64,000 bases of DNA from a virus (lineage: Duplodnaviria; Caudoviricetes): IMG/VR virus record IMGVR_UViG_3300027747_002427, one strand, 5' to 3'. Each line of letters opens with the position of its first letter. The stretch's first letter is position 1. Under the pieces are notes generated by a model that worked only from the letters and a program-made list of their open reading frames with translations, was not told where the DNA came from and did no database searches. Of this stretch, positions 13,527-48,427 are shown piece after piece. Position numbers and translations under genes: made by a program.

Positions 13527-13640
13527 AATTTTATATAACAGAGTTTAAAGCAACGCCCGATTCCTATTGGATTATGGATATAGGGGGTAGAAAGGTTAGA
13601 AGGTTTATTGAATGGCTTTGGTTTAGAATTGAATATTAAT

Positions 13641-14168
13641 ATGAAGCCTACAGTTGTATGGATTACTGGATTATCGGGTGCTGGTAAGACAACTGTAGCC
13701 GAACTTTTAGAACAGTATTGTTTCTATAAAGGTCGTAAGGTAGGTTTATTAGATGGGGATGTTATTCGAGCAACATATGAAAAGCCAAAAGGCTTTGATA
13801 TGAAGAGTAGGGAGAGGATGGTTAATGAAATGGTCTATAGAGTTAGAAATATGGTGGAGTTTCAAAAAGTTGATGTCACTATTGTTGCTATGATATCACC
13901 TCTTCAGTCTATGAGAGATAACGCTCGTAAGCTCTTGACATCTTACTCTGGTGCTAAGTTTGTAGAGGTTTATTTAGATACACCATTAGAGATTTGTGAG
14001 CAAAGAGATCCAAAAGGTCTTTATAAAAAAGCTCGAGCTGGTGAGATCAAAAACTTTACAGGTATTGATTCAATCTATGAGCCAGCAACACACGCTGAAG
14101 TTATAATTCCCTTTAATTATACAGTTGAACAATCTATAGAACTAATATATAATTCAATAATAATATGA
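13641..14168 (+). CDS. cysC: Adenylyl-sulfate (APS) kinase
   Basis: WITGLSGAGKTT, LLDGD, ISP, EVYLDTPLEICEQRDPKGLYKKARAGEIKNFTGIDSIYE; start moved to MKPTVVW. Confidence 0.93.
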   Translation: MKPTVVWITGLSGAGKTTVAELLEQYCFYKGRKVGLLDGDVIRATYEKPKGFDMKSRERMVNEMVYRVRNMVEFQKVDVTIVAMISPLQSMRDNARKLLTSYSGAKFVEVYLDTPLEICEQRDPKGLYKKARAGEIKNFTGIDSIYEPATHAEVIIPFNYTVEQSIELIYNSIII

Positions 14169-18432: not shown

Positions 18433-18506
18433 GCCTGGTTAGTTTAATGGTAAAACGGTTGATTTGTAATCATCAAACAAGAGTTCGATTCTCTTACTAG
18501 GCTCCA
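18433..18506 (+). tRNA. tRNA-Thr(UGU)
   Basis: Acceptor GCCTGGT/ACTAGGC; loop TT-TGT-AA; GTTCGATT T-loop; CCA encoded. Confidence 0.88.
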
Positions 18507-18533
18507 CCATCCTTGTAGGGGGTAAGTATTTAT

Positions 18534-18662
18534 GTGCTTACTGTATTTGAAGGCGCTATGACGGGGTTGATGCTTATTCCCTTTGTAATTGGTTATATAA
18601 CTTTTTTAATATTTAAATATACTTGTAAAATTCTTCTTGCAATTATACGTAAACTATCATAG
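18534..18662 (+). CDS. 42-aa membrane peptide between tRNAs (GTG start)
   Basis: AGGGGGTAAGTATTTAT immediately upstream; hydrophobic core. Confidence 0.4.
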   Translation: MLTVFEGAMTGLMLIPFVIGYITFLIFKYTCKILLAIIRKLS

Positions 18663-18674
18663 TATATAAACCAT

Positions 18675-18746
18675 GTCCTCATAGTGTAGCGGTTAGCACC
18701 AGCCCCTTTCACGGGCTTAGCAGGGGTTCAAATCCCCTTGAGGATG
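18675..18746 (+). tRNA. tRNA-Glu(UUC)
   Basis: AGCCC-CTTTCAC-GGGCT anticodon arm; no encoded CCA. Confidence 0.9.
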
Positions 18747-18762
18747 TTAAATAATTTTATAT

Positions 18763-18852
18763 GGAAGCTTACTCAAGCGGTTTACGAGAGCGGTTTACTA
18801 AACCGCCGAGCCTTCATCGGCTCCGTGGGTTCGAATCCCACAGCTTCCTCCA
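18763..18852 (+). tRNA. tRNA-Ser(ACU), type II, A34
   Basis: GGAAGCT/AGCTTCC acceptor; GCGGT-TTACTAA-ACCGC arm; long variable arm; CCA encoded. Confidence 0.85.
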
Positions 18853-18855
18853 TAT

Positions 18856-18933
18856 GCGTCAATGCCTGAGAAGCCCAAAGGAAAGGTCTGCAAAACCTTA
18901 AAGCCGTAGGTGCAAATCCTACTTGACGCTCCA
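18856..18933 (+). tRNA. tRNA-Cys(GCA)
   Basis: AAGGT-CTGCAAA-ACCTT; U73; CCA. Confidence 0.88.
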
Positions 18934-18940
18934 TTTTAAC

Positions 18941-19029
18941 GGAAGTGTGTCTGAGTGGTTTAAAGAGTCAGTCTTGAAAACTGAAGAGGTCTAAAGCCTC
19001 CGTGGGTTCGAATCCCACCGCTTCCTCCA
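18941..19029 (+). tRNA. tRNA-Ser(UGA)
   Basis: TCAGT-CTTGAAA-ACTGA; long variable arm; CCA. Confidence 0.92.
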
Positions 19030-19052
19030 TATAAAAGGGGGTAAGTATTTAT

Positions 19053-19406
19053 ATGTTTACAAGAATTAAAGATACTCTCCAAGGTAAAGCTCCTATAACA
19101 GCTTCTCGCTCTCCTAAATGGAATGGTGTGAGAGATGCACATTTAAAACAACAACCTAATTGTGCAGTTTGCGAAGGTAATGAAAATCTTAATGTTCATC
19201 ATATTAAACCCTTTCATTTACACCCAGATTTAGAATTAGAACCTACTAATCTTATTACTCTTTGTGAATGTGAGAAGCATGGTGTTAATTGTCATTTACT
19301 CATTGGGCATTTAGGTAATTTTAGAAATGTTAATCCACATGTGTTAGAAGATGTTCCACTTTGGAATGCTAGACTAAAAGAAAAAAACAATAATCCAGAC
19401 TTATAG
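19053..19406 (+). CDS. HNH endonuclease inside tRNA cluster
   Basis: CAVC...VHHIKP...NLITLC...CHLLIGH. Confidence 0.85.
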   Translation: MFTRIKDTLQGKAPITASRSPKWNGVRDAHLKQQPNCAVCEGNENLNVHHIKPFHLHPDLELEPTNLITLCECEKHGVNCHLLIGHLGNFRNVNPHVLEDVPLWNARLKEKNNNPDL

Positions 19407-19454
19407 TTATTGCCTTACTGATGAAGATGTATTAATATATACATCATAAGCATC

Positions 19455-19529
19455 CGGGATGTAGCTCAGCTTGGCTAGAGCGCTTGGTTTGGGACCAAGA
19501 TGTCGTAGGTTCGAATCCTATCATCCCGA
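19455..19529 (+). tRNA. tRNA-Pro(UGG)
   Basis: CTTGG-TTTGGGA-CCAAG; CGGGATG/CATCCCG; no CCA. Confidence 0.93.
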
Positions 19530-19536
19530 AATTTAA

Positions 19537-19611
19537 TGTCGAGTAGCTCAGTGGTAGAGCGGAGAGCTGTTAACTCTTTGGTCGTAGGTTCAAATCCTAC
19601 CTCGACAGCCA
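19537..19611 (+). tRNA. tRNA-Asn(GUU)
   Basis: GAGAG-CTGTTAA-CTCTT; G73; CCA. Confidence 0.93.
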
Positions 19612-19648
19612 ACTTTTTTTGAAACTCTTAGGGTAAGTAATATCATCT

Positions 19649-20002
19649 ATGACCCTTTCTCCAGTAGTTTCCTCTCTCCCAGCCACTCCAAATATAGGGT
19701 GGAATAATTCTTGGGTTTCCGTACCCAATGACCAAAGTAGATCTTTATTTGCTCAAGCAATGTATAAAGTTAATGAATTAGGTAGTAATGGAATTACAGT
19801 TATTGCTGGGACTAATCAAGTAGATGGTAAATTTGGGGGTCTTCAAACAATAACTTCAACGGTTTTTGCAGGATTGACTTCTTCCGGGACTACAGCAGTA
19901 AGTGCGATATCTATTCCTACATTCCCAGCTGGGTTCGTTTTAAACGGCAATTTTACATCTATAAAATTAACAAGTGGTCAAGTCATTGCTTATAACGCTT
20001 AA
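19649..20002 (+). CDS. Small beta-rich probable virion protein
   Basis: C-terminal PAGFVLNGNFTSIKLTSGQVIAY; N-terminal module shared with 6421..7068. Confidence 0.5.
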   Translation: MTLSPVVSSLPATPNIGWNNSWVSVPNDQSRSLFAQAMYKVNELGSNGITVIAGTNQVDGKFGGLQTITSTVFAGLTSSGTTAVSAISIPTFPAGFVLNGNFTSIKLTSGQVIAYNA

Positions 20003-20004
20003 AT

Positions 20005-20012
20005 TATAAATA
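20005..20012 (+). promoter_or_regulatory. T4-type late promoter TATAAATA
   Basis: Exact T4 gp55 consensus, 7 nt before ATG 20020. Confidence 0.55.
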
Positions 20013-20019
20013 TAATATC

Positions 20020-20259
20020 ATGAGTATAAAAATAGTAACAAAACCAGAAGAATCATTAACAATTGAATCCGTAGAAGTAATAGCTGTAAGAGATTTATTT
20101 GACGAAAAAAAGATTATAGCTCGTATAGCAGGTCTCCCTAGAGGCGTTATCCTTTGGGAAGGAGATACAGAATATACAGCAGCCGGTAATTGGACAAATG
20201 AAACAGCAATAGCTAAGGCAAACGAGGTTATTAATTCCGGTTCTATTAAGTGGGCTTAA
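20020..20259 (+). CDS. Hypothetical protein
   Basis: 79 aa ORF with late motif. Confidence 0.5.
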   Translation: MSIKIVTKPEESLTIESVEVIAVRDLFDEKKIIARIAGLPRGVILWEGDTEYTAAGNWTNETAIAKANEVINSGSIKWA

Positions 20260-20277
20260 TTTAGCTTAAAAAACTAA

Positions 20278-20305
20278 TTGCATTTATTAATCATTTCTTT
20301 ATAAT
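20278..20305 (+). promoter_or_regulatory. sigma70-type promoter for purA
   Basis: TTGCAT-N16-TATAAT, ATG 6 nt later. Confidence 0.65.
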
Positions 20306-20311
20306 AAGGGA

Positions 20312-21310
20312 ATGATTAATTTTGTTGATATCATAGTAGGTCTTGCTTGGGGGGATGAAGGCAAAGGTAAAGTCTCAAGCGCTTTAGCCAAAGATTATGA
20401 CATGGTATGTCGTTGGAATGGTGGTCCAAATGCTGGTCATACGGTTTATCTAAATGATAAGAAATATAAAACACATCTGATTCCTTCTGGAGTATTTCAC
20501 GGTAAGCCTTCTATTATAGGTCCTAATTGTGTTATTAATATCAGCAAGTTTTGGGAAGAGATGGAATATCTTAAAGAGAATGGGTTTGATACTTCTTTAG
20601 TAAAAATTCATCCTCATGCTCATGTGATTACTAAAGATCATATTAAATTTGATTTGGATTATCTCAAACCAAAATTAGGAACAACCGGTCAAGGCATTGC
20701 TCCTTGTTATGCGGCAAAAGCAAATAGAGTAGGAGTTCAAATTAAAGATTCTTCGATTGATCCGATATATCATTGGAATGGAAAATTACAAGGTAAAATT
20801 CTTTGCGAAGGAGCACAAAGTATTTGGTTGGATATCAATTACGGGGATTATCCTTATGTAACAAGTTCTGAAACGTTTCCTCATAATGCTTGTTCTCTTG
20901 GATTTTCTCCAAAAAAGATCAGAGACATTATTGGAGTAGCAAAGATCTATGATACAAAAAGTGGTGTAGATCCTTTATTTCCAGAAACACTTTGGGACGA
21001 TCCTATTCTTGATAAAGTCATTGAAATTGGAGGAGAAGTAGGAACGACAACTGGAAGAAAAAGAATTGTAAACTGGCTAAATGTTAGAAAGCTAGTTGAG
21101 GCTATTAATCTTTCAGGAGTAACAAAGCTTATTATTAATAAGTGTGATGTACTAGAAAAGGTTGGCGAATTTAGATATAATTTTGATAATAATGGATTTG
21201 TATCAATTGGTCTTAATCCATTTAAGAAAAGTTTAACAAAAGATATAATAGAAAACACAGAACTTAAAGAAGAAGATATTGTATTTTCCGGTGACACGAC
21301 TAAAATATAA
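20312..21310 (+). CDS. purA: Adenylosuccinate synthetase (short form)
   Basis: GDEGKGK, GGPNAGHT, EGAQ, PYVTSS, GTTTGRKR. Confidence 0.92.
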   Translation: MINFVDIIVGLAWGDEGKGKVSSALAKDYDMVCRWNGGPNAGHTVYLNDKKYKTHLIPSGVFHGKPSIIGPNCVINISKFWEEMEYLKENGFDTSLVKIHPHAHVITKDHIKFDLDYLKPKLGTTGQGIAPCYAAKANRVGVQIKDSSIDPIYHWNGKLQGKILCEGAQSIWLDINYGDYPYVTSSETFPHNACSLGFSPKKIRDIIGVAKIYDTKSGVDPLFPETLWDDPILDKVIEIGGEVGTTTGRKRIVNWLNVRKLVEAINLSGVTKLIINKCDVLEKVGEFRYNFDNNGFVSIGLNPFKKSLTKDIIENTELKEEDIVFSGDTTKI

Positions 21311-21312
21311 CC

Positions 21313-21627
21313 ATGAGTAATTCCACATCATCAGCCTTCAAAGGCATTCCCACTAAACTTACAAACAATCCAGAGGTTGTTGAAGAAATTCTTCTTACAG
21401 AAGTTCCTGTAATTGATGAGACTTTATTAGAAACACCATCTACTGAAACACCTATAGTTGAAGTACCAATTGCAGAAGGTTCATTATTAGAGAATCCTAT
21501 TATTGATGAAACTTTATTAGAAGAAGGTTCTTTAGAAGAACAACATAAAGATCTTTTGAAGAAAGAGGAAAGTGTTTTGGAAAGAAAGATTGAAGTTTTA
21601 GAAGAACTTAAAACTTTAATTTCTTAA
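21313..21627 (+). CDS. Highly acidic repeat protein
   Basis: Repeated PxIDETLLE / EGSLLE units. Confidence 0.5.
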   Translation: MSNSTSSAFKGIPTKLTNNPEVVEEILLTEVPVIDETLLETPSTETPIVEVPIAEGSLLENPIIDETLLEEGSLEEQHKDLLKKEESVLERKIEVLEELKTLIS

Positions 21628-21635
21628 AAATTTAT

Positions 21636-21706
21636 TTCCTGGTGGTGTAATGGTAGCACAAGAGTTTTTGGCACTCTTTGTCGAGGTTCGAGTCCTTGCC
21701 GGGAAG
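21636..21706 (+). tRNA. tRNA-Gln(UUG)
   Basis: AGAGT-TTTTGGC-ACTCT; TTCCTGG/CCGGGAA; no CCA. Confidence 0.9.
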
Positions 21707-21714
21707 CTTTTTAG

Positions 21715-21743
21715 TTGATATTCCTTTATAAAACATTTAATAT
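21715..21743 (+). promoter_or_regulatory. sigma70-type early promoter
   Basis: TTGATA-N17-TAATAT-ATAAACA-ATG, same layout as 9014. Confidence 0.65.
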
Positions 21744-21750
21744 ATAAACA

Positions 21751-22107
21751 ATGAGCGAAGAAAATACAAAGACAGTAAGACTAATGGAATCCTTTACCAC
21801 ATATGAGTGCCATGGAGACATTAAACTTAATCTTGATATTTTCCCGGAATTGAAAGATAAGACAAATCAAGAAATTCAAACTTGGTTAAATGAAAATTCT
21901 GGTAATCTTTATATTGATTGTTATAGCCAAGAACTTCGCAAAGATCAATATTATATATATTCCCAAGAAGAATTAGATGATATGTTGGTTAATGGAGAAG
22001 ATCCTGAAATAGATGATAGTGTAATAGAACTTTCAGAATATTGGTCAAATACGGAAGTGATTTGGGATAAAATCAAGTGTGAAGAAAAGACTTTGCATGT
22101 ACAATAA
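21751..22107 (+). CDS. Acidic hypothetical protein
   Basis: 118 aa ORF. Confidence 0.5.
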   Translation: MSEENTKTVRLMESFTTYECHGDIKLNLDIFPELKDKTNQEIQTWLNENSGNLYIDCYSQELRKDQYYIYSQEELDDMLVNGEDPEIDDSVIELSEYWSNTEVIWDKIKCEEKTLHVQ

Positions 22108-22114
22108 TTTAAAT

Positions 22115-22199
22115 GGGTAGATCGCATAGCGGCAATTGCCGGAGACTGTAAATCTCCTCTCCTCGGAGTTCGAAGGTTCGAGTCCTTCTCTGCCCACCA
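22115..22199 (+). tRNA. tRNA-Tyr(GUA)
   Basis: GGAGA-CTGTAAA-TCTCC; variable arm; CCA. Confidence 0.92.
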
Positions 22200-22203
22200 T
22201 TTT

Positions 22204-22872
22204 ATGAAAATTAAAACTAAACTTACAAAAATTTGTACAGGTGTTTATCTTTGCGAAATTGATAATGCTTATGATTTGGCAATGACTTTTTGTAGGGTTC
22301 AAGAATTTTATGAATCTTCTTTTGAGCAAATAAGAGGCAAAAATTTTAATATGATGGAATTTCAAAGAATTTATTCTTTGAAAAATGGAGGAACTTTTAC
22401 ATATCCTGAAGACTGGTCTGGTTTTAATATTCCTAGTGGTATTTTAGATAAATTTTATAAAGGTTCTTGGGTTCAGACAGATTGGAATATGTATGATTCA
22501 GTATTAAAAAAAGTGATCAATCAAATAAAAGAAAACAAACCTTATTATTTGATAGGGACACAGAAAAAGGATCAAGATACCATCAATCATGAATTATGTC
22601 ATGCGTTTTATAAATTAGATAAAAAATATAAAAAAAGTGTAACCAAACTTATTAATAGTATTCCAAGAAGACTTTTAGATAAAATGAAAAATGTTCTTCG
22701 TAAAACCGGATATTGCGATAATGTATTAAGAGATGAAATACAAGCATATCTTTCCTGTGACCAAGCCTTTTTAGGCGATGCAATAAGATCCGATTGGGAG
22801 AAAATAGAAAAGTGGGGTATTGTTTTTGAAAAACATTTTAATAAACATATTACCCTAAATATAAAGAAATGA
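22204..22872 (+). CDS. Zincin-like (HExxH) hypothetical protein
   Basis: INHELCHAFY motif; downstream DEIQAY. Confidence 0.55.
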   Translation: MKIKTKLTKICTGVYLCEIDNAYDLAMTFCRVQEFYESSFEQIRGKNFNMMEFQRIYSLKNGGTFTYPEDWSGFNIPSGILDKFYKGSWVQTDWNMYDSVLKKVINQIKENKPYYLIGTQKKDQDTINHELCHAFYKLDKKYKKSVTKLINSIPRRLLDKMKNVLRKTGYCDNVLRDEIQAYLSCDQAFLGDAIRSDWEKIEKWGIVFEKHFNKHITLNIKK

Positions 22873-24008
22873 ACTTTAAAGATTTCTATAACAACGAAGA
22901 AGGACACATGGTTCTTGTTAAAGACGTTGAGATTAGTGAGGCGTTATCATATCACCTGAAACATAAATTAACCTTAAGTGAAAATGCTTTTAGAATATAT
23001 TCAGATCAATACTTTGCTTTAATTCAAGAAGCTAGAGATCTTTATAATCAAGATGCCTTGGCTTTAAATGACGAAGATGTAGAATTAGTTGAATCTTCTT
23101 TAGGTGAAAAAGCAATTTACAACGGAAGAGAAGTTTATTTAGAAGCCCCTCTTTATCTAAGTGAGGATATTATATTAGAAGCAACATTGGAGCCTAATTC
23201 TATTGATACAACAATTTATGTTGATATGGATGGGGTTTTAGCTGATTTAAGAAAAGCAGTTTGTCAATATGTTGGTAAAGATCATGTTGAAGACGAAGAT
23301 TATGACAAATATTTCTTAGATCATAAAGACAATATAAAAGATTGTTTTAGAAATCTTACAAAATTCGATTCAACAGATTATTTAATTAAGCTTGTTTCGG
23401 ATGTTGCAGGGTCTTATAAAATTTGTTCATCGCCTTTAAGAAGTGATAGAGAAAATTCATCCATCGGAAAAAGTGAATGGTTAGAATCCAATTTAGAAAT
23501 TAAACCTTTAGAGAAAATTTTTACAGGCCGCAAAGAGTCCTATGCTACTACAAACGGCAAACCTAATATTTTAATAGATGATAAAGAAAAAAATATTAGA
23601 AGGTGGGAAGATAAAGGCGGAATAGGAATTCTTTATTCGGCAGAACATGATAGTCTAGACACAATTGTTCAAGGTTTAGAAAGAGCTAAAAAAATATTAA
23701 TGGGTGAAAGTACAATTACAGAAGCTATTAAAAATGGTAAAAAAGTAAAACTCGGCCATCCATTTAGAACCCCAGGAGGTCCTAAGAAATTTGCCGTTTA
23801 TGTTAAGACACCCAAAGGTTCTATCAAGAAAGTAACCTTTGGAGATCCTAATATGAAGGTTCGTAATAATAATAAAGCTAGAGCTAAATCATTTAGAGCA
23901 AGACATAAATGTTCTCAAAAGAAAGATAGAACAACGGCTGGTTATTGGAGCTGTAATGTTTCTCGATATCGTAAAGCTTTAGGTTTAAAATCTTCAAGAG
24001 TCTGGTAA
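22869..24008 (+). CDS. Multidomain protein: CTS-like N-domain + HAD 5'(3')-deoxyribonucleotidase-like + DUF6321-like basic C-domain
   Basis: MNFKDFY; IYVDMDGVLAD, ICSSP, K, ILIDD HAD motifs; KKFAVYVK...TFGDPNMK...RAKSFRARHKC...YWSC. Confidence 0.75.
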   Translation: MNFKDFYNNEEGHMVLVKDVEISEALSYHLKHKLTLSENAFRIYSDQYFALIQEARDLYNQDALALNDEDVELVESSLGEKAIYNGREVYLEAPLYLSEDIILEATLEPNSIDTTIYVDMDGVLADLRKAVCQYVGKDHVEDEDYDKYFLDHKDNIKDCFRNLTKFDSTDYLIKLVSDVAGSYKICSSPLRSDRENSSIGKSEWLESNLEIKPLEKIFTGRKESYATTNGKPNILIDDKEKNIRRWEDKGGIGILYSAEHDSLDTIVQGLERAKKILMGESTITEAIKNGKKVKLGHPFRTPGGPKKFAVYVKTPKGSIKKVTFGDPNMKVRNNNKARAKSFRARHKCSQKKDRTTAGYWSCNVSRYRKALGLKSSRVW

Positions 24009-24271
24009 TGAGCCTTCCGTTTCAGCAAGAAAGGATATCTGATAAAGAAGTTATCAGATCATTTTCAGAATTTATAGATGAAGAAGATTTAAAATGGCAT
24101 TTTGATAAAGAAGACAGAATAGTTGAAGCTTTAGAACCTACGGATTGGTTAATTCAATTTGATAACCAATTACCCCAATTAATAGAAGGCAAAATAGAAA
24201 TCCCTGCTGGAATATATCACAGAGTAATAAAAGGAAAAAAAGATTTTAAAATTAAAATTAAAATGTCTTGA
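24008..24271 (+). CDS. Cupin-like small protein
   Basis: WHFDKEDRIVE...IPAGIYHRVIKG pattern. Confidence 0.6.
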   Translation: MSLPFQQERISDKEVIRSFSEFIDEEDLKWHFDKEDRIVEALEPTDWLIQFDNQLPQLIEGKIEIPAGIYHRVIKGKKDFKIKIKMS

Positions 24272-24296
24272 TCTTTCTTATCAGGTGTATTAATAT
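24268..24296 (+). promoter_or_regulatory. sigma70-type promoter for tRNA-Val/Ala
   Basis: TTGATC-N17-TAATAT-AAAC. Confidence 0.6.
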
Positions 24297-24307
24297 AAAC
24301 ATGATAT

Positions 24308-24383
24308 GCACGAGTAGCTCAGTGGTAGTAGCGTTTCGCTTACACCGAAAATGTCGGGGGTTCGAATCCCTCCTCGTGTACCA
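24308..24383 (+). tRNA. tRNA-Val(UAC)
   Basis: TTTCG-CTTACAC-CGAAA; CCA. Confidence 0.92.
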
Positions 24384-24384
24384 T

Positions 24385-24457
<73 letters not shown>

Positions 24458-24467
24458 CTCCACTATT

Positions 24468-25027: not shown

Positions 25028-25549
25028 ATGCATAAAGATTTAGAAAATATATTATTCTCAAAAATTTCCCTTTCAGCAAAAATTAAATCTCTTGGAAGAA
25101 CTATTAGTAAAGATTACAAAGAAGAGCCTTTAACTATTATCAGTCTTATGGCTGGTAGTATTTTATTTACAGCTGATTTAATAAGGGAAATCAATATTCC
25201 AATTCAATTATACACTATAACAGTCTCAAGTTATAATGGAGAAAAAATAAGTTCAGGGACGCTCAATATTCAAGGGCATATACCAGATTGTAAAGATAAA
25301 AACGTTTTAATAGTAGATGATATTTTAGATTCCGGTTTAACTCTTTATACGTTAAAAAACCGATTAAATGAATTGAATCCCAAATCAGTTAAAACTTGTG
25401 TTTTATTAAATAAGAAAATTGAAAGACCATATACAATAGATCCTGATTATTATGGATTTGAAATAGGAGAAGAATTTGTTGTAGGTTATGGATTAGATTA
25501 TCAGGGACTATATAGAAATATCCCTTATATTGGTACTCTTAAGAATTAA
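25028..25549 (+). CDS. hpt: Hypoxanthine phosphoribosyltransferase
   Basis: VLIVDDILDSGLTL PRPP loop; FVVGYGLDY...YRNIPYI. Confidence 0.92.
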   Translation: MHKDLENILFSKISLSAKIKSLGRTISKDYKEEPLTIISLMAGSILFTADLIREINIPIQLYTITVSSYNGEKISSGTLNIQGHIPDCKDKNVLIVDDILDSGLTLYTLKNRLNELNPKSVKTCVLLNKKIERPYTIDPDYYGFEIGEEFVVGYGLDYQGLYRNIPYIGTLKN

Positions 25550-25550
25550 T

Positions 25551-26141
25551 ATGAATTGTGGATATTTAAAAAGAGAAACGGTTTTAGTTTTAAATCGTAA
25601 TTGGCAAGCTATACACGTTAAATCACCGGCTGAAGCATTGGCTGCAATGTTCAGTGATGATGCAACCGGCCTAGATGTTCAAGGAACAGATAATATGATT
25701 CCTTATAGATGGGATCAATGGATTAATTTGCCTTATGATGAAAATGCTTCTTACATTAAAACAGTAAGAGGAGATATAAAAATACCAAAGATTATTATCC
25801 TAGCAGAATTTGATAAAGTTCCACAAAAAAGACCAAAGTTTTCTTCTAAAGCTATTTGGAGAAGAGATGAAAGTATTTGCCAATATACAGGTCAAAAATT
25901 AACTCCTAATGAGGGTAATATTGATCATGTTATTCCAAGATCAAAAGGCGGCAAGACTAGTTGGACTAACTGTGTTTTAGTTCATAAAGAAGTAAATGCT
26001 AGGAAAGCGGATAAAATGCCACATGAAGCAGGTTTAAAATTAATCAGACAACCACAAATTCCTAAAGCATTACCTACTACATTTTACATTAAAAATAAAC
26101 ATAAAATCCAGGAATGGGAAATTTTCTTAAAATATGAATAG
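25551..26141 (+). CDS. HNH endonuclease (McrA-like)
   Basis: VLVLN, RRDESICQYTG, IDHVIPRSKGG.TSWTN, NARK. Confidence 0.88.
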   Translation: MNCGYLKRETVLVLNRNWQAIHVKSPAEALAAMFSDDATGLDVQGTDNMIPYRWDQWINLPYDENASYIKTVRGDIKIPKIIILAEFDKVPQKRPKFSSKAIWRRDESICQYTGQKLTPNEGNIDHVIPRSKGGKTSWTNCVLVHKEVNARKADKMPHEAGLKLIRQPQIPKALPTTFYIKNKHKIQEWEIFLKYE

Positions 26142-26538
26142 AATATCTTGGGAAGAATATGCTTTAAAAATAGCAGAAGTAGCTTCATTAAGAAGTGAGG
26201 ATCCTCGTACTAAAGTAGGTTGCTGTTTACTTCGCACAGATAATACCGTAGCTAGTTTAGGTTATAATGGAGCTCCAGCTGGAGTGGAAATAGAATGGAA
26301 TAACCGTGAAGAAAAACACAAAAGGGTTATTCACGCAGAGATTAATGCTCTTAGAATGGTTAAACCAGGAGAGTGTTATCTAGCAGCAGTAACTCATTCT
26401 TGTTGCAATGATTGTTTAAAATCTTTAGCAGCCTACGGAATCAAAAAAATAATTTATAAAACTCATTACGATACAGGCACCTCATATTCATTTACAGAGA
26501 TAGCCAAAGATTTCGGAATTGAAGTAGTAAATTTATGA
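26134..26538 (+). CDS. dCMP deaminase
   Basis: SEDPRTKVG, GYNG, HAEINAL, CNDC. Confidence 0.88.
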   Translation: MNRISWEEYALKIAEVASLRSEDPRTKVGCCLLRTDNTVASLGYNGAPAGVEIEWNNREEKHKRVIHAEINALRMVKPGECYLAAVTHSCCNDCLKSLAAYGIKKIIYKTHYDTGTSYSFTEIAKDFGIEVVNL

Positions 26539-26738: not shown

Positions 26739-28412
26739 TTATGCCTCACAACTCTTACAAGTCATAATTGAACGAGCAAGTTCTTTTGCTGGGTTAGAAC
26801 TTCTCTGATAATAGAGACTTTTAATTCCATTTTCCCATGCAAAAATGATAAGCTCATTTACTGCTTTAGGCGGTGTTCCTGCTGGAATCATAAGATTCAA
26901 ACTTTGACCCTGATCAATATATTTTTGTCTAGCAGATGCTTGAATAACAATTTCTTTTTGAGAAGTTTCAGCAAAGGTTTTAAATACATCTTTTTCTTCT
27001 TGAGTAAGAAAATTAAGATGTTGAATTGATCCTCCATGAGTTAGAATATCTTTCCAGGTTTCTTCGTCATTCTTATCTTTGGATTTGAGTAATGCTTTAA
27101 GATAAGGATTTTTATAAGTGAATTTGCCCTTTGCTAAATCTTTAACAAAGTAATTTGATTCTAAAGGTTCAATACTTGGAGATACTTGACCAAGAATAAA
27201 TGAACTAGAGGTTGTAGGAGCTACCGCTAAAGTAGTCGTATTTCTACGATTGCAACCTTTTAGTAATTCTGGTTCTCCTATTAATTCGGAAAGATCTTTA
27301 GTTGCTTTGTCTGCTCTTTCTCTTATGGTTTTCCAAATAGTTGAATTAAGAAGCTTTGCTTCCATGGATTCAAATGCAATCATTTTAGATTGTAAAAGTG
27401 AATGCCAACCGAGAATACCAAGACCTAATGCTCTATGCCTTACTGCAAAATTTCTAGGCGCATCCATAAAAGGCATACCTTCGGTTTTATTAATAAATTC
27501 TGACATAACAGCATCCAAGAAATAAATCATCGTTTCTACTGCATCAGTATCTTTCCATTCTTCCCACTTTTCCAAATTCATAGAAGAAAGATCACAAACA
27601 AATGATTCTTCTTCATTATTAGGAAGCATAATTTCTGTACAAAGATTAGAATGATTAATCTTCATCTTTGCATCTTTATAAACTTGCGGAGCTTGATTGT
27701 TTACATTATCGGTAAAGAAAATATAAGGATAACCAGATTCAAAACGCTTCTTAAGAACAAGACCCCAAATTCTACGCTTTTCTTTATCTCCTTCAATCAT
27801 AGATTTCATCCATTCATCGGTAATGGTAACACCGATAGAAAGATTTTGAATACTGTTTCCTTCTGAGCGAATAGCTAAGAATTCTTCTATGTCCTTATGA
27901 TCAATAGGAAGATATGAAGCAAAAGACCCACGACGAACATTCCCTTGAGAAATGACACTCATGAGGCTTTCAAAGAGTTCCATGAAATGAACCGTACCTG
28001 TAGATTCACCACCTGATGAGATAGGTTCTCCTCTGCCTCTTAAGGAGCCGAAATAAGCTGAAGTACCTCCACCTCCTTTTGTCATCATTCCAACTTCTGA
28101 AACCTTTTCTAAGATACCTTCCATGGTATCTGGAATATGAGAACCGAAGCAAGAAATAGGAAGACCTCTTTTACGACCGAAATTAGACCAAATAGGAGAT
28201 GCTAAAGAATAAAATCCTCTATGCATGTAATCTTCAAACTTTTTTGCAAATTTTGTATCGCCTGTAAATTCTACTAAAATCTTTTGAGCAGCTTTTGCTA
28301 TATCATGAATTCTTTGTTCTGGTGTTTCGTCTTCTAAAAGATAACCTCTCTGGAGAAATTTTCTTGAATCCTTGTTTAGCCAATAAATGTTGCTTGTTGC
28401 CTCTGTAGTCAT
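26739..28412 (-). CDS. nrdA: Class I ribonucleotide reductase alpha subunit
   Basis: PISCF, GGGTS, SQGNVRRG, SNLCTEI, APTTSSS, SLYYQRS, C-terminal CKSCE. Confidence 0.95.
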   Translation of the reverse strand: MTTEATSNIYWLNKDSRKFLQRGYLLEDETPEQRIHDIAKAAQKILVEFTGDTKFAKKFEDYMHRGFYSLASPIWSNFGRKRGLPISCFGSHIPDTMEGILEKVSEVGMMTKGGGGTSAYFGSLRGRGEPISSGGESTGTVHFMELFESLMSVISQGNVRRGSFASYLPIDHKDIEEFLAIRSEGNSIQNLSIGVTITDEWMKSMIEGDKEKRRIWGLVLKKRFESGYPYIFFTDNVNNQAPQVYKDAKMKINHSNLCTEIMLPNNEEESFVCDLSSMNLEKWEEWKDTDAVETMIYFLDAVMSEFINKTEGMPFMDAPRNFAVRHRALGLGILGWHSLLQSKMIAFESMEAKLLNSTIWKTIRERADKATKDLSELIGEPELLKGCNRRNTTTLAVAPTTSSSFILGQVSPSIEPLESNYFVKDLAKGKFTYKNPYLKALLKSKDKNDEETWKDILTHGGSIQHLNFLTQEEKDVFKTFAETSQKEIVIQASARQKYIDQGQSLNLMIPAGTPPKAVNELIIFAWENGIKSLYYQRSSNPAKELARSIMTCKSCEA

Positions 28413-36702: not shown

Positions 36703-39114
36703 ATGTCTACTCTAACCTTAGCATCACCTGGTGTACAAATCAATGAAGTCGATCTTAGTCTTTTGGCTAGAACTACTGGAGCAACAAACATCTTAGTCAC
36801 GGGATTTGCCGATAAGGGTCCTACCGATGAAGTTGTAAACGTAGGAAGCTTAACTGAATATGAAGAAGTATTCGGTTCTCCTACAACCGGTGCAGAAAGA
36901 TATCTTTATCAATCTGCAAAACAAATTTTAACACAATCTAATGGTAATCTTTTAGTTTCAAGAGTACCTTACGGATCAGGCACAGGAGCAGGATTTTCAA
37001 ATACATACAGTGCTTTAGTATATCCTATTACATCAAATAATAATTCTAGTTTTGCTACTTCAACAAGCTATACAATATTAGCTCCTAAGTCAGTTCTCTT
37101 GACCGAAGATCAATACAATTCTATATTAGCTGGTGATGTTACATGGAGTTCTTCTAATAGTTTCTTAACAAGTTCTACAAATGTCGTAGCGGCTAGTACA
37201 ACACCGTTTAGTACAATTTCCAGTGTCTATTTTAGTGATGACATTAATGTAAGTCCGTTCAATGGTGTACGCCCACAAGATATTATTCAATACCCTTGGA
37301 GTAGTGGTGCTTATCGTGTATCATTCTATACAAGAAGTTACAATTCATCTTTAAGTGCATTCGGAGCTTATAATCCTAGAGAAGTAACAGATTTTTCAAC
37401 CATTGGCAATGCCGGATTGGTTGTATTAAACCCTTCTAAGCTTTCAGTTAATAATCTTTTTGAAGGTTATTATATAGGTATCGCTGATAATTCCAATAAT
37501 AACCCAGCTTCAGATTTCACATCTATCACTGGTATCAGAGCAGCTCAGTCTGTTAATGGTACATATCAATCATTTGTGACTGTTCCAAATTCAAGATTGA
37601 ATTTCAATCTTCAAACTCCATTTACTTCAACAGAAACTAGTATTTCTGAAATTGTAGAGAAGTTCCCAGTTGGTTACGATTTCAGTTCACAATCATTTAA
37701 TGATTGCTTAACTTTGGTGGTGTTTAAGATTCGTTCTTCTATATATTCTCAAGACACTGTATCATTGGATTATGTAACTCAAGAAGGTTACACAGGTTCA
37801 TTATATGGAGACAGAACACAAAATAATGCCAACGGTGGATCACCAGTTACTTTTGCATTAGAAAATGTTGCAAATCAACGTTCCAATAACATCAAAGTAT
37901 TGGTAAACCCAAATATTTCAAGAGCACCAGAATGGATTGGTGATGATGGTATACCACAAAAGTCTGTAAGAGTAGCAGATGCCGCTAAGAATTTATATTC
38001 AGAGGGTGTTTATATTTCAAACACAAATTCAGTATCTAAAGACGTAGGAAATATACCTTTAAAGCTACAACGTATCTTAAACAATGTTGATACATTAGAC
38101 ATTCCTTTAGACGTAACAGCAGAAGCTGGATTAGGAACCATATGGGCAAGTGCCAAGGCTCGTCACGCTGATGTGAATTATGGTAACAATTTAGATTCTA
38201 ACCCTTATCTCTATGATGAATATTATAACTTAAACATCTCAGATCTTAAGAAACAAACAGATGGTTATACATCACAAGTTGCATTAGATTATAATACTGT
38301 AGCATCTCAGTTTGTAAGTTTTGCAGAAAACACTCGTAAAGATCATGTGTTTATTGCAGATCCTTTAAAGGCTATCTTCATTTCAGGAAATGATATCAAG
38401 ACTTCCAAGCTCAAAGGTTATGTATTCTCATCTGATGTGTATTGGGCTATCAAGAATCTTTATGCTTCTTCAGTTTCTAGTTACACTGCAGTTTATGGTA
38501 ACTGGGTCAAGGTTAATGACGTAGCAGCCGACAAGCAAGTGTGGGTACCAGCTTCTGGTTATGCCGCGACAGTATTTGCTCAAAGCGCAGCAACATCATT
38601 CCCATGGTCCGCTCCTGCTGGATTCAATCGTGGTGCATTAACAAATGTACTTGATTTAGCAATCAATCCTACACAGAAGCATCGAGATCTTCTCTATAGA
38701 ATCAACATTAACCCTATTGCCTACTTCCCTGGTGATGGTTATGTGATCTATGGACAAAAGACACTCTTCACAAAGCCATCTGCTTTTGATAGAATCAATG
38801 TTCGTAGATTGTTCTTGACTTTAGAAAAATCAACACAACAGGTTCTTAAGTACTTCGTATTTGAACCAAATACATTTACAACAAGAACACGTCTTGTAAA
38901 CACACTCAACCCAATCTTCAATCAAGCCAAGAACAACAATGGCTTATATGATTTCAAGATTGTTTGTGACGAGCGTAACAATACACCTGACGTAATTGAT
39001 CAAAATCAATTGAAGGTTTCAATTTATATCCAACCAGTAAGAACCGCTGAATTCATCTTAGCAGACTTCATTGCAACACAAACTGGAGTCAACTTTAATG
39101 AATTAATTGGTTAA
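36703..39114 (+). CDS. gp18: Contractile tail sheath protein
   Basis: SPGVQINEVDLS; WSAPAGFNRG; YGQKT; FDRINVRRLF; FEPN; CDERNNT; IQPVRTAEFI. Confidence 0.95.
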   Translation: MSTLTLASPGVQINEVDLSLLARTTGATNILVTGFADKGPTDEVVNVGSLTEYEEVFGSPTTGAERYLYQSAKQILTQSNGNLLVSRVPYGSGTGAGFSNTYSALVYPITSNNNSSFATSTSYTILAPKSVLLTEDQYNSILAGDVTWSSSNSFLTSSTNVVAASTTPFSTISSVYFSDDINVSPFNGVRPQDIIQYPWSSGAYRVSFYTRSYNSSLSAFGAYNPREVTDFSTIGNAGLVVLNPSKLSVNNLFEGYYIGIADNSNNNPASDFTSITGIRAAQSVNGTYQSFVTVPNSRLNFNLQTPFTSTETSISEIVEKFPVGYDFSSQSFNDCLTLVVFKIRSSIYSQDTVSLDYVTQEGYTGSLYGDRTQNNANGGSPVTFALENVANQRSNNIKVLVNPNISRAPEWIGDDGIPQKSVRVADAAKNLYSEGVYISNTNSVSKDVGNIPLKLQRILNNVDTLDIPLDVTAEAGLGTIWASAKARHADVNYGNNLDSNPYLYDEYYNLNISDLKKQTDGYTSQVALDYNTVASQFVSFAENTRKDHVFIADPLKAIFISGNDIKTSKLKGYVFSSDVYWAIKNLYASSVSSYTAVYGNWVKVNDVAADKQVWVPASGYAATVFAQSAATSFPWSAPAGFNRGALTNVLDLAINPTQKHRDLLYRININPIAYFPGDGYVIYGQKTLFTKPSAFDRINVRRLFLTLEKSTQQVLKYFVFEPNTFTTRTRLVNTLNPIFNQAKNNNGLYDFKIVCDERNNTPDVIDQNQLKVSIYIQPVRTAEFILADFIATQTGVNFNELIG

Positions 39115-46543: not shown

Positions 46544-48427
46544 ATGCCAAGAAAATCAAAAGACGAAGAAGACGAAGAAGATGAGGTAGATCTTAATTCT
46601 ATACCTTTAGAGGAGATAGAAAACGCTGATATATTAGCTGACGGCAAATATTTTCAAGGTAATGAAAATATTTTAAGACAAAATGCTACTTTCAAATGGA
46701 CTGAAGAGATGCAATCGGAGCTTAAGCTCTGTATTAAAAGTATCTTACATTTTGCAGAACATCATTTTTATATATCCACCCTTGATGATGGAAAGAAAAG
46801 AATTGAACTTCATAAATTCCAGAAAAGATTATTAAAAGCTTTCAAAGCTAATAGATTTAATATCGTATTAGCCTCGCGTCAGGTGGGTAAAACCACTTGT
46901 ATTACAATTTATGCTCTTTGGTTAGTTTGTTTTCAATCTGATAAAAGAGTTACTATCATTGCTAACAAAGAATCAACTGCAAAAGAAATTTTTAGCAGAA
47001 TTCGTATGGCCTTTGAACAATTACCAATTTATCTCAAGCCTAGTATGAAGTCTTGGAGAAAAGATGGGTTCTTGTTATCTAACGATTCAGCTATTACCAT
47101 TAGTACAACCTCAGCAGCAGGTCCTCGTGGTAGTACAAGTAATCTTCTTATTATTGATGAGATGGCTCACTGTCCAACAGAACTCATGAAAGAACTTTGG
47201 AAATCTGCTATTCCTATTATATCTTCTTCTAAGAAATCTCAAATTGTTGCTATTAGTACACCCAATGGAACTGATAATAAATTTTATGAACTTTATGAAG
47301 AATCCCAAAAGAAAGGAAGTGAATGGCACTTAGAAAGAGTTGATTGGTGGGATGTTCCTGAAAGAGACGAAGAATGGAAAAGAGGAGCTATAGCGGCTTT
47401 GGGTTCGGAAGAAGACTTTGAACAAGAATATGGCAATGCTTTTATTCTCCCGGGTAAGAGTGTTGTAGATACAACCTATCTAGATGAGTTAAAAGCTCAA
47501 GCTAAAGAACCAGTTCTTATTAATGATAATGGTTTTTATAAAATATTTGAATTACCTAAACCAGGTAATCTTTATATCATAGGTGTCGACGTAGGAGAGG
47601 GTATAGGAAGATCAAATACAGTAGCTCAGATTTTGGATGTTACTAATTTACAAGATATTAGACAGGTAGCTATATATGCTACCAATACTATGAGTCCTTT
47701 TCATTTTGGAACAAAGTTGATGAGTGTTTTAACCGATTGGGGAAGACCTCCTATTCTTATTGAAAATAATAACAATGGTCAACAAGTATTAGATGTTCTA
47801 CATCAAACCCATCAATATGAAAATATTGTATCTTATCAATTTGAAGGTAATAGCAAACATTATGATACCGGAAAAAGACTAGGAGTTCATAATCATACTA
47901 ATACAAGATATAAAGGTATTATTAATTTTAGATATTGGTCTAATGGATTAAAAGTGGTAAAATTAAATGATTTAGACACTATATTAGAACTTTATAATTT
48001 TGTTCGTTTGCCTAATTTTACATTTAGTAAAAGAAGTGATAAAGATTTAGATGATAGAGTATTTGGTTTAATTTGGGGGCTCTTTATTTTAGATCCTTCT
48101 TTGGTTTCTAAATATTTTTTATTATCGGAATTGGATGATCAGGGAAGACCTAGTAGAATACAAGCTCTTGTAGATAATTCAGATCTTATATCAAAAAGTC
48201 CTTTACTCATAGGTGGTGGATATACTTTAGAAAAAAAGAGTGCTCCTGTATTGCCTAGTTATGTGCCGGTTAAAGGGCAAGAAGGCAATGCAGTGCTAGC
48301 TGATGAAGCTAAAAATTTATGGATGTGGCTACATACAAATGGTGGTACCGAAAAAGATACGTTCAAAACTCCTCTTCAAGAGGATAAGTCTTCTATAGAA
48401 GAATATAGACCTATTATATTATTTTAA
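46544..48427 (+). CDS. gp17: Terminase large subunit
   Basis: ASRQVGKTT Walker A; LIIDE Walker B; STPNG; FEQEY; IGVDVGEG; DDRV nuclease. Confidence 0.95.
   Translation: MPRKSKDEEDEEDEVDLNSIPLEEIENADILADGKYFQGNENILRQNATFKWTEEMQSELKLCIKSILHFAEHHFYISTLDDGKKRIELHKFQKRLLKAFKANRFNIVLASRQVGKTTCITIYALWLVCFQSDKRVTIIANKESTAKEIFSRIRMAFEQLPIYLKPSMKSWRKDGFLLSNDSAITISTTSAAGPRGSTSNLLIIDEMAHCPTELMKELWKSAIPIISSSKKSQIVAISTPNGTDNKFYELYEESQKKGSEWHLERVDWWDVPERDEEWKRGAIAALGSEEDFEQEYGNAFILPGKSVVDTTYLDELKAQAKEPVLINDNGFYKIFELPKPGNLYIIGVDVGEGIGRSNTVAQILDVTNLQDIRQVAIYATNTMSPFHFGTKLMSVLTDWGRPPILIENNNNGQQVLDVLHQTHQYENIVSYQFEGNSKHYDTGKRLGVHNHTNTRYKGIINFRYWSNGLKVVKLNDLDTILELYNFVRLPNFTFSKRSDKDLDDRVFGLIWGLFILDPSLVSKYFLLSELDDQGRPSRIQALVDNSDLISKSPLLIGGGYTLEKKSAPVLPSYVPVKGQEGNAVLADEAKNLWMWLHTNGGTEKDTFKTPLQEDKSSIEEYRPIILF

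Follow-up and report, generated by a model that had tools for sequence, protein, structure and literature searches.

The window analysed here is the whole 64,000-nt stretch of DNA of the IMG/VR record IMGVR_UViG_3300027747_002427 (Caudoviricetes), and all positions are numbered within it. It carries a cluster of 11 tRNA genes (Table 1) in the order Thr TGT, Glu TTC, Ser ACT, Cys GCA, Ser TGA, Pro TGG, Asn GTT, Gln TTG, Tyr GTA, Val TAC and Ala TGC. The third gene, a tRNA-Ser with the anticodon ACU, is the subject of this study; no Ser(GCT) gene was found in the cluster by ARAGORN or Rfam. The window, with a GC content of 30-36%, belongs to a large phage with a contractile tail. When the tRNA cluster was searched against cultured phages for near-identity, the match was confined to the conserved tRNA-Pro, and no close cultured relative was found. 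The closest relative (locus L141) has 92% protein identity and the same tRNA order.

Table 1. Features of the window (64,000 nt) referred to in the text.
Feature	Positions	Strand	Basis or remark
APS kinase (CysC-like)	13608-14168	+	
11-tRNA cluster	18433..24458	+	ARAGORN, Rfam; same gene order in L141
tRNA-Ser(ACU) gene, class II, encoded CCA, U73	18763..18852	+	ARAGORN; Rfam RF00005; sequence; compensatory changes in 25 relatives
Anticodon arm, stem GCGGT/ACCGC around 7-nt loop	18790..18806	+	sequence; 9 different paired stems in relatives
Anticodon ACT (A34 C35 U36) in loop TTACTAA (18795-18801)	18797..18799	+	sequence, ARAGORN
Sister tRNA-Ser(UGA)	18941..19029	+	GGAAG acceptor start, U73 and encoded CCA common with the ACU tRNA
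PurA-like (adenylosuccinate-synthase-like) gene, 332 aa, inside the tRNA cluster	20312-21310	+	
Phosphoribosyltransferase	25028-25549	+	
HNH endonuclease	25530-26141	+	directly upstream of dCMP deaminase
dCMP-deaminase-type protein	26134..26538	+	NCBIfam ComEB; PDB matches; PF00383 homologue in L141
Ribonucleotide reductase	26739-28412		
Tail sheath gene	36703-39114		
Large terminase	46544-48427		

The original prediction of a tRNA-Ser with an ACU anticodon is borne out in position and anatomy, on which ARAGORN (Ser, act, plus strand), Rfam and our own reading of the sequence agree. The Rfam tRNA model RF00005 recognises the gene with 48.4 bits (E 2.9e-8) against a gathering score of 29, and this, together with the complete cloverleaf, places it among the tRNAs. 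Its acceptor stem GGAAGCT/AGCTTCC consists of seven perfect pairs, the D stem of three (CTC/GAG), the long variable arm has a 5-bp stem (GAGCC/GGCTC) and the T arm is canonical (GTGGG-TTCGAAT-CCCAC). The long variable arm with its own stem and the 3-bp D stem, both of which covary, are those of a class II tRNA-Ser. In E. coli the identity set for the seryl-tRNA synthetase (SerRS) comprises the pairs G1-C72, G2-C71 and A3-U70 with the discriminator G73, which is the usual discriminator of bacterial tRNA-Ser. All three pairs are present in the gene and base 73 is U and not G, as also in the sister tRNA-Ser(UGA); the discriminator is followed by an encoded CCA (18850-18852). The description of the gene as intact rather than decayed, with its own CCA, stands as well. 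It is not a tRNA-Ser(GCU) isoacceptor, which would have G34, the base at 18797 being A.

The folding energy of the gene is low relative to shuffled sequences (z = -4.2), and the minimum-energy fold of the lone strand favours an alternative, non-cloverleaf pairing because GCGGTTTA is repeated in the D loop. Of the two copies of the 10-nt direct repeat AGCGGTTTAC, one (18776-18785) lies in the D loop and the other (18790-18799) in the 5' half of the anticodon arm; the repeat was considered as a sign of duplication or misfolding and dropped, since the identity is not kept in L141 and the repeat is probably due to chance. The CCA is encoded directly after the discriminator in seven of the 11 tRNAs of the window, and most Ser(ACT) genes of other viral contigs are without it. 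Promoter and terminator scans around the cluster gave counts no higher than in shuffled sequences and are uninformative on expression. The PurA-like gene is kept in 67 viral contigs, and its product scores 258 bits with PurA (below the curated cut-off) versus 93 bits with PurZ, scores that do not support a role in 2-aminoadenine DNA. The pairing of the HNH endonuclease with the dCMP deaminase is also kept in the closest relative.

Assembled contigs from other sequencing runs, all of them freshwater metagenomes, were compared with the window. Contigs of two DNA runs from 2017 (X3 and X5, possibly collected in one campaign with the source sample) have A at position 18797, without any listed difference. 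The same base stands in a DNA run from a separate 2022 study (X6), whose tRNA deviates from that of the window only by C18778T in the D loop, and in two contigs of a lake metatranscriptome (RNA-library run X11). The A is supported as the real base at this position by the contigs of three DNA runs and one RNA-library run rather than by raw reads, which had been envisaged originally. The contigs of X11 may stem from DNA carry-over or from precursor transcripts; they show neither transcription nor editing state and were not taken as evidence of expression.

IMG/VR was scanned with the anticodon-arm sequence, any base being allowed at position 34. Among the 51 matching contigs base 34 was A in 43 and G in 8, and the arm was set in several quite different tRNA bodies. 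All 43 contigs with A34 were called Ser(act) and none of them has a Ser(gct) in the fetched stretch; the neighbouring genes are mostly tRNAs with U34 and, in the Asn and Tyr boxes, tRNAs with G34. Because this search fixed the sequence of the arm, a second, independent sample was drawn, in which 67 viral loci were fetched through the PurA-like protein. Ser(act) is the commonest tRNA of this protein-anchored sample (27 of 67 loci), Ser(gct) and broken copies occur in none of the 67 loci, and all 22 distinct Ser(act) sequences have anticodon stems unlike the one first searched. A search of phage tRNA sets for Ser-ACT had been suggested in the original prediction; in total, 62 distinct sequences were found in 90 loci of phages and of tiny bacteria (CPR). 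Against cultured phages a BLAST search with the 33-nt anticodon-arm sequence gave no match, the exact arm being found among viruses in uncultivated contigs only.

These sequences show how strongly the structure is maintained. The loop YTACTAA (YUACUAA in the RNA) is invariant in the 62 distinct sequences (TTACTAA in 58, CTACTAA in 4) and is carried by nine different, fully paired anticodon stems. In an alignment of 25 Ser(act) sequences, 99.5% of the cloverleaf cells are paired and 18 of the 24 pairs show a compensatory change, values matched by none of 500 shuffles. In the serine tRNA of L141 both the acceptor stem and the anticodon stem differ from those of the window by double changes that preserve the pairing, the anticodon stem becoming GCTGT/ACAGC, and the anticodon is the same. 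The whole L141 record (177 kb, 82% complete) has 10 tRNAs, with no Ser(GCU) among them. In a 136-kb relative, whose record is 87% complete, Ser(ACU) is the only tRNA, and in three other records it is one of just three. The Ser(ACU) gene is intact and recurrent, selection acts on its structure, and it goes together with low GC and AGU-rich coding, as the following comparisons show.

AGU had been described as frequent in these AT-rich genes, and the count agrees: the long ORFs of the window contain 310 AGT versus 62 AGC codons (5:1), AGT making up 24% of all serine codons. Viral Ser(ACT) loci have a GC content of 0.35 and a ratio AGT/(AGT+AGC) of 0.67, as against 0.52 and 0.41 for viral Ser(GCT) loci; the corresponding cellular values are 0.39 and 0.64 with Ser(ACT) and 0.71 and 0.09 with Ser(GCT) only, the samples compared not being phylogenetically independent. 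All carriers of Ser(ACT) are AT-rich. The cellular sample was obtained with the same arm pattern in prokaryote contigs, one genome per species, where G34 was found in 63 high-GC genomes (Chloroflexia, Sphingomonas) and A34 in 17 low-GC contigs, mostly of CPR/Patescibacteria. The CPR gene resembles that of the window in its low-GC setting, in an identical anticodon arm (AGCGGTTTACTAAACCGCCGAG) and in the variable and T arms, which at the loci L058 and L100 are similar to the window copy. It differs in being cellular and in its company, since a normal Ser(gct) lies within the same 8 kb in 8 of the 17 loci, whereas in the phage loci the ACU gene has no GCU companion.

The standard reader of AGY codons, tRNA-Ser(GCU), such as the GCT gene of cyanophage S-PM2, shares with the ACU gene the class II body, the long variable arm and the Ser-type acceptor stem, and some GCU arms are identical except for base 34. 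The ACU gene has A34 in place of G34 and is expected to read AGU by Watson-Crick pairing and AGC little or not at all; where the same arm is found with GCU it is in high-GC genomes, whereas the ACU form is in low-GC genomes. A cultured example exists in coliphage 121Q, whose GenBank record KM507819 annotates a tRNA-Ser(act) (PBI_121Q_131) without comment. This is likewise a phage-encoded class II serine tRNA with the ACU anticodon in an AT-rich jumbo myovirus, but it has the stem CTCGC/GCGAG, the loop CTACTAA and another variable arm and, coming from a cultured coliphage, it can be tested at the bench.

A 2021 review holds that A34 is found nowhere in the Ser-Arg split box and that the genes missing from cells are missing from phages as well (PMC8007984). 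Two E. coli studies treat natural ACU genes as absent and built ACU tRNAs artificially (PMC11066159; bioRxiv 10.64898/2026.05.15.725136). Our literature search on Ser-ACT or the anticodon ACU in phages found no description of natural Ser(ACU) tRNAs, and a 2026 survey of phage tRNAs makes no mention of Ser(ACU). The earlier statement that A34 is essentially limited to tRNA-Arg(ACG) thus matches the reviews and is incomplete for phages, where Ser(ACU) recurs. In all but its anticodon, held to be absent from nature, the tRNA described here is an ordinary serine tRNA.

Taken together, these data are in good agreement with a role already put forward in the original prediction, that of an unedited Watson-Crick decoder dedicated to AGU, which we regard as the most likely function and as probable. 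The unedited A34 would pair with the U of AGU, and the phage tRNA would supplement the host tRNA-Ser(GCU), which would read AGU only through a G:U wobble; as a result, the genes of this AT-rich phage, in which AGU is abundant, would be translated faster. Charging would presumably be carried out by the host SerRS, with the Ser-type acceptor stem and the long variable arm as recognition elements. The charging with serine, the unedited state of A34 in the natural host and the benefit through faster AGU decoding are our inferences from the gene and its context. A37 next to U36, as in this loop, is the usual context of t6A. The excess of AGT over AGC, the AT-rich carriers, a loop without the TadA determinants and a window without a TadA-type enzyme (see below), and published E. 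coli data all fit this function.

Among the latter, an orthogonal tRNA with the ACU anticodon read AGU with 9.4% and AGG with 0.36%, AGC and AGA being below detection, and contained no inosine (PMC11066159). Overexpression of Ser-tRNA(ACU) improved the growth of E. coli, whereas ANN tRNAs for Phe, Cys and Asn impaired it (bioRxiv 10.64898/2026.05.15.725136). The natural gene has in common with these constructs the anticodon, which in E. coli was specific for AGU, free of inosine and non-toxic or beneficial, and differs from them in that they are artificial, built on Tyr or E. coli Ser bodies. The benign character of ACU in E. coli may explain why it is this "prohibited" anticodon that is found in nature. 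The AGU-decoder explanation leaves the G34 of the Cys (GCA) tRNA in the same cluster unaccounted for, and the U73 in place of the bacterial G73 speaks against it.

Other explanations could be issued. The first supposes that the host, or its defence system, cleaves or depletes tRNA-Ser(GCU) upon infection and that the A34 form escapes and keeps AGY decoding going; we hold this evasion, also offered in the original prediction, to be unlikely. In a stronger version, an AT-rich phage that retains a single tRNA would retain Ser(ACU), as the AGY decoding by the host Ser(GCU) is attacked by an unknown defence or by phage shut-off, and the A34 tRNA would then be a resistant replacement and not merely a faster decoder; this too we give a small chance. 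Phage tRNAs with changes in the anticodon loop that escape anticodon nucleases are documented (PMC10264068; PMC11555353). Moreover, the retention of Ser(ACU) as the sole tRNA of the 136-kb relative would fit a specific bottleneck, and in viral loci ACT replaces GCT instead of joining it. However, no nuclease that targets Ser(GCU) is known to us. In mycobacteria, Ser(gct) is the serine tRNA that is not targeted (PMC10264068). Furthermore, the same ACU tRNA adjoins a normal GCU tRNA in the cellular CPR genomes, where evasion makes little sense, and Ser(ACU) occurs along with low GC and a preference for AGU, a pattern not predicted by evasion.

The second alternative, which we consider quite improbable, is that a deaminase of the host or the phage converts A34 into inosine, so that AGU and AGC would both be read and AGA (Arg) misread as Ser, either as a tolerated cost or as a deliberate device. 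The ACU anticodon differs from ACG, the substrate of TadA, only at position 36. One split-box ANN tRNA engineered in E. coli, Phe AAA, which was the only one sequenced, was edited from A to I (bioRxiv 10.64898/2026.05.15.725136), so that editing of ACU in some hosts is possible. Against this, AGA is the main arginine codon of the window (377 of 589 Arg codons, 20.9 per 1000 codons) and its misreading would damage nearly every protein, which makes the deliberate mistranslation device of the original prediction unlikely. The E. coli ACU tRNA described above neither contained inosine nor read AGA, and the contigs of the RNA library, although weak evidence, read A and not G at position 34.

The loop of the gene points in the same direction. 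The TadA substrate loop is C32-U33-A34-C35-G36-A37-A38, with the core UACG, whereas the Ser(ACU) loop reads U32-U33-A34-C35-U36-A37-A38 and thus departs from tRNA-Arg2 at both positions 32 and 36. Changes at position 32 alone blocked TadA (PMC11066159). The edited tRNA-Arg(ACG) resembles Ser(ACU) in its gene-encoded A34 and in an anticodon beginning with AC; it differs in C32 and G36, which are TadA determinants, and in serving a four-codon box, where inosine is harmless, whereas Ser(ACU) serves a split box. As to the enzyme, no TadA-type gene was found in the window or in the 177-kb record of L141, and the only deaminase-fold gene near the cluster is of the dCMP type. The best PDB matches of its product (26134-26538) are all deoxycytidylate deaminases (2w4l, 2hvv, 4p9c, 1vq2), it belongs to NCBIfam ComEB, it has the zinc motif SCC..C in place of PC..C, and its L141 homologue was found with PF00383. 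Judged by these similarities it is a dCMP deaminase and not a TadA. Given the two differences in the loop and only a dCMP-type deaminase nearby, editing of A34 is unlikely.

The least probable explanation, a neutral G34-to-A change under AT mutation pressure that did no harm in a dispensable phage gene for Ser(GCU), the decoder being provided by the host, is favoured by the single transition that links the GCU and ACU forms, by identical anticodon arms existing with G or A and by the AT-richness of every carrier, but it predicts a mixture of GCT, ACT and decayed genes where the protein-anchored sample has 27 ACT, no GCT and no broken copies, and it fits neither the maintenance of the stems by compensatory changes nor the keeping of Ser(ACU) as the sole tRNA of one large genome.

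The avoidance of A34 anticodons is an old puzzle. A natural ACU tRNA that is intact, under selection and widespread in AT-rich phages means that the rule of the missing A34 is not absolute, and the natural exception is the very anticodon that the engineering studies found to be the most benign. Since 121Q carries Ser(act), three questions can be answered at the bench: (i) whether A34 remains unedited; (ii) which codons are read; and (iii) what the phage gains. The practical consequence for annotation pipelines and tRNA databases is that a Ser(ACT) call should not be dismissed as a pseudogene.

Some further observations were made on the tRNAs of these contigs. ARAGORN gave tmRNA-like calls, which may be false positives, in two viral contigs with Ser(ACT), L222 (2598-2985, +) and L011 (4-455, -). 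The window makes heavy use of ATA (26 per 1000 codons) and has no Ile tRNA within its 64 kb. The AT-rich phage clusters studied here often contain a tRNA-Ile(TAT) (L002, L004, L006-L008, L016, L020, L028, L034, L037, L038, L046, L050, L144-L152 and L205), UAU being listed as lost in prokaryotes (PMC8007984). Two other viral tRNAs with A34 were seen, a tRNA-Ser(AGA) at L034 (5034-5119, -), two genes from Ser(ACT), and a tRNA-Thr(AGT) at L051 (9466-9538, +) in a cyanophage-like cluster.
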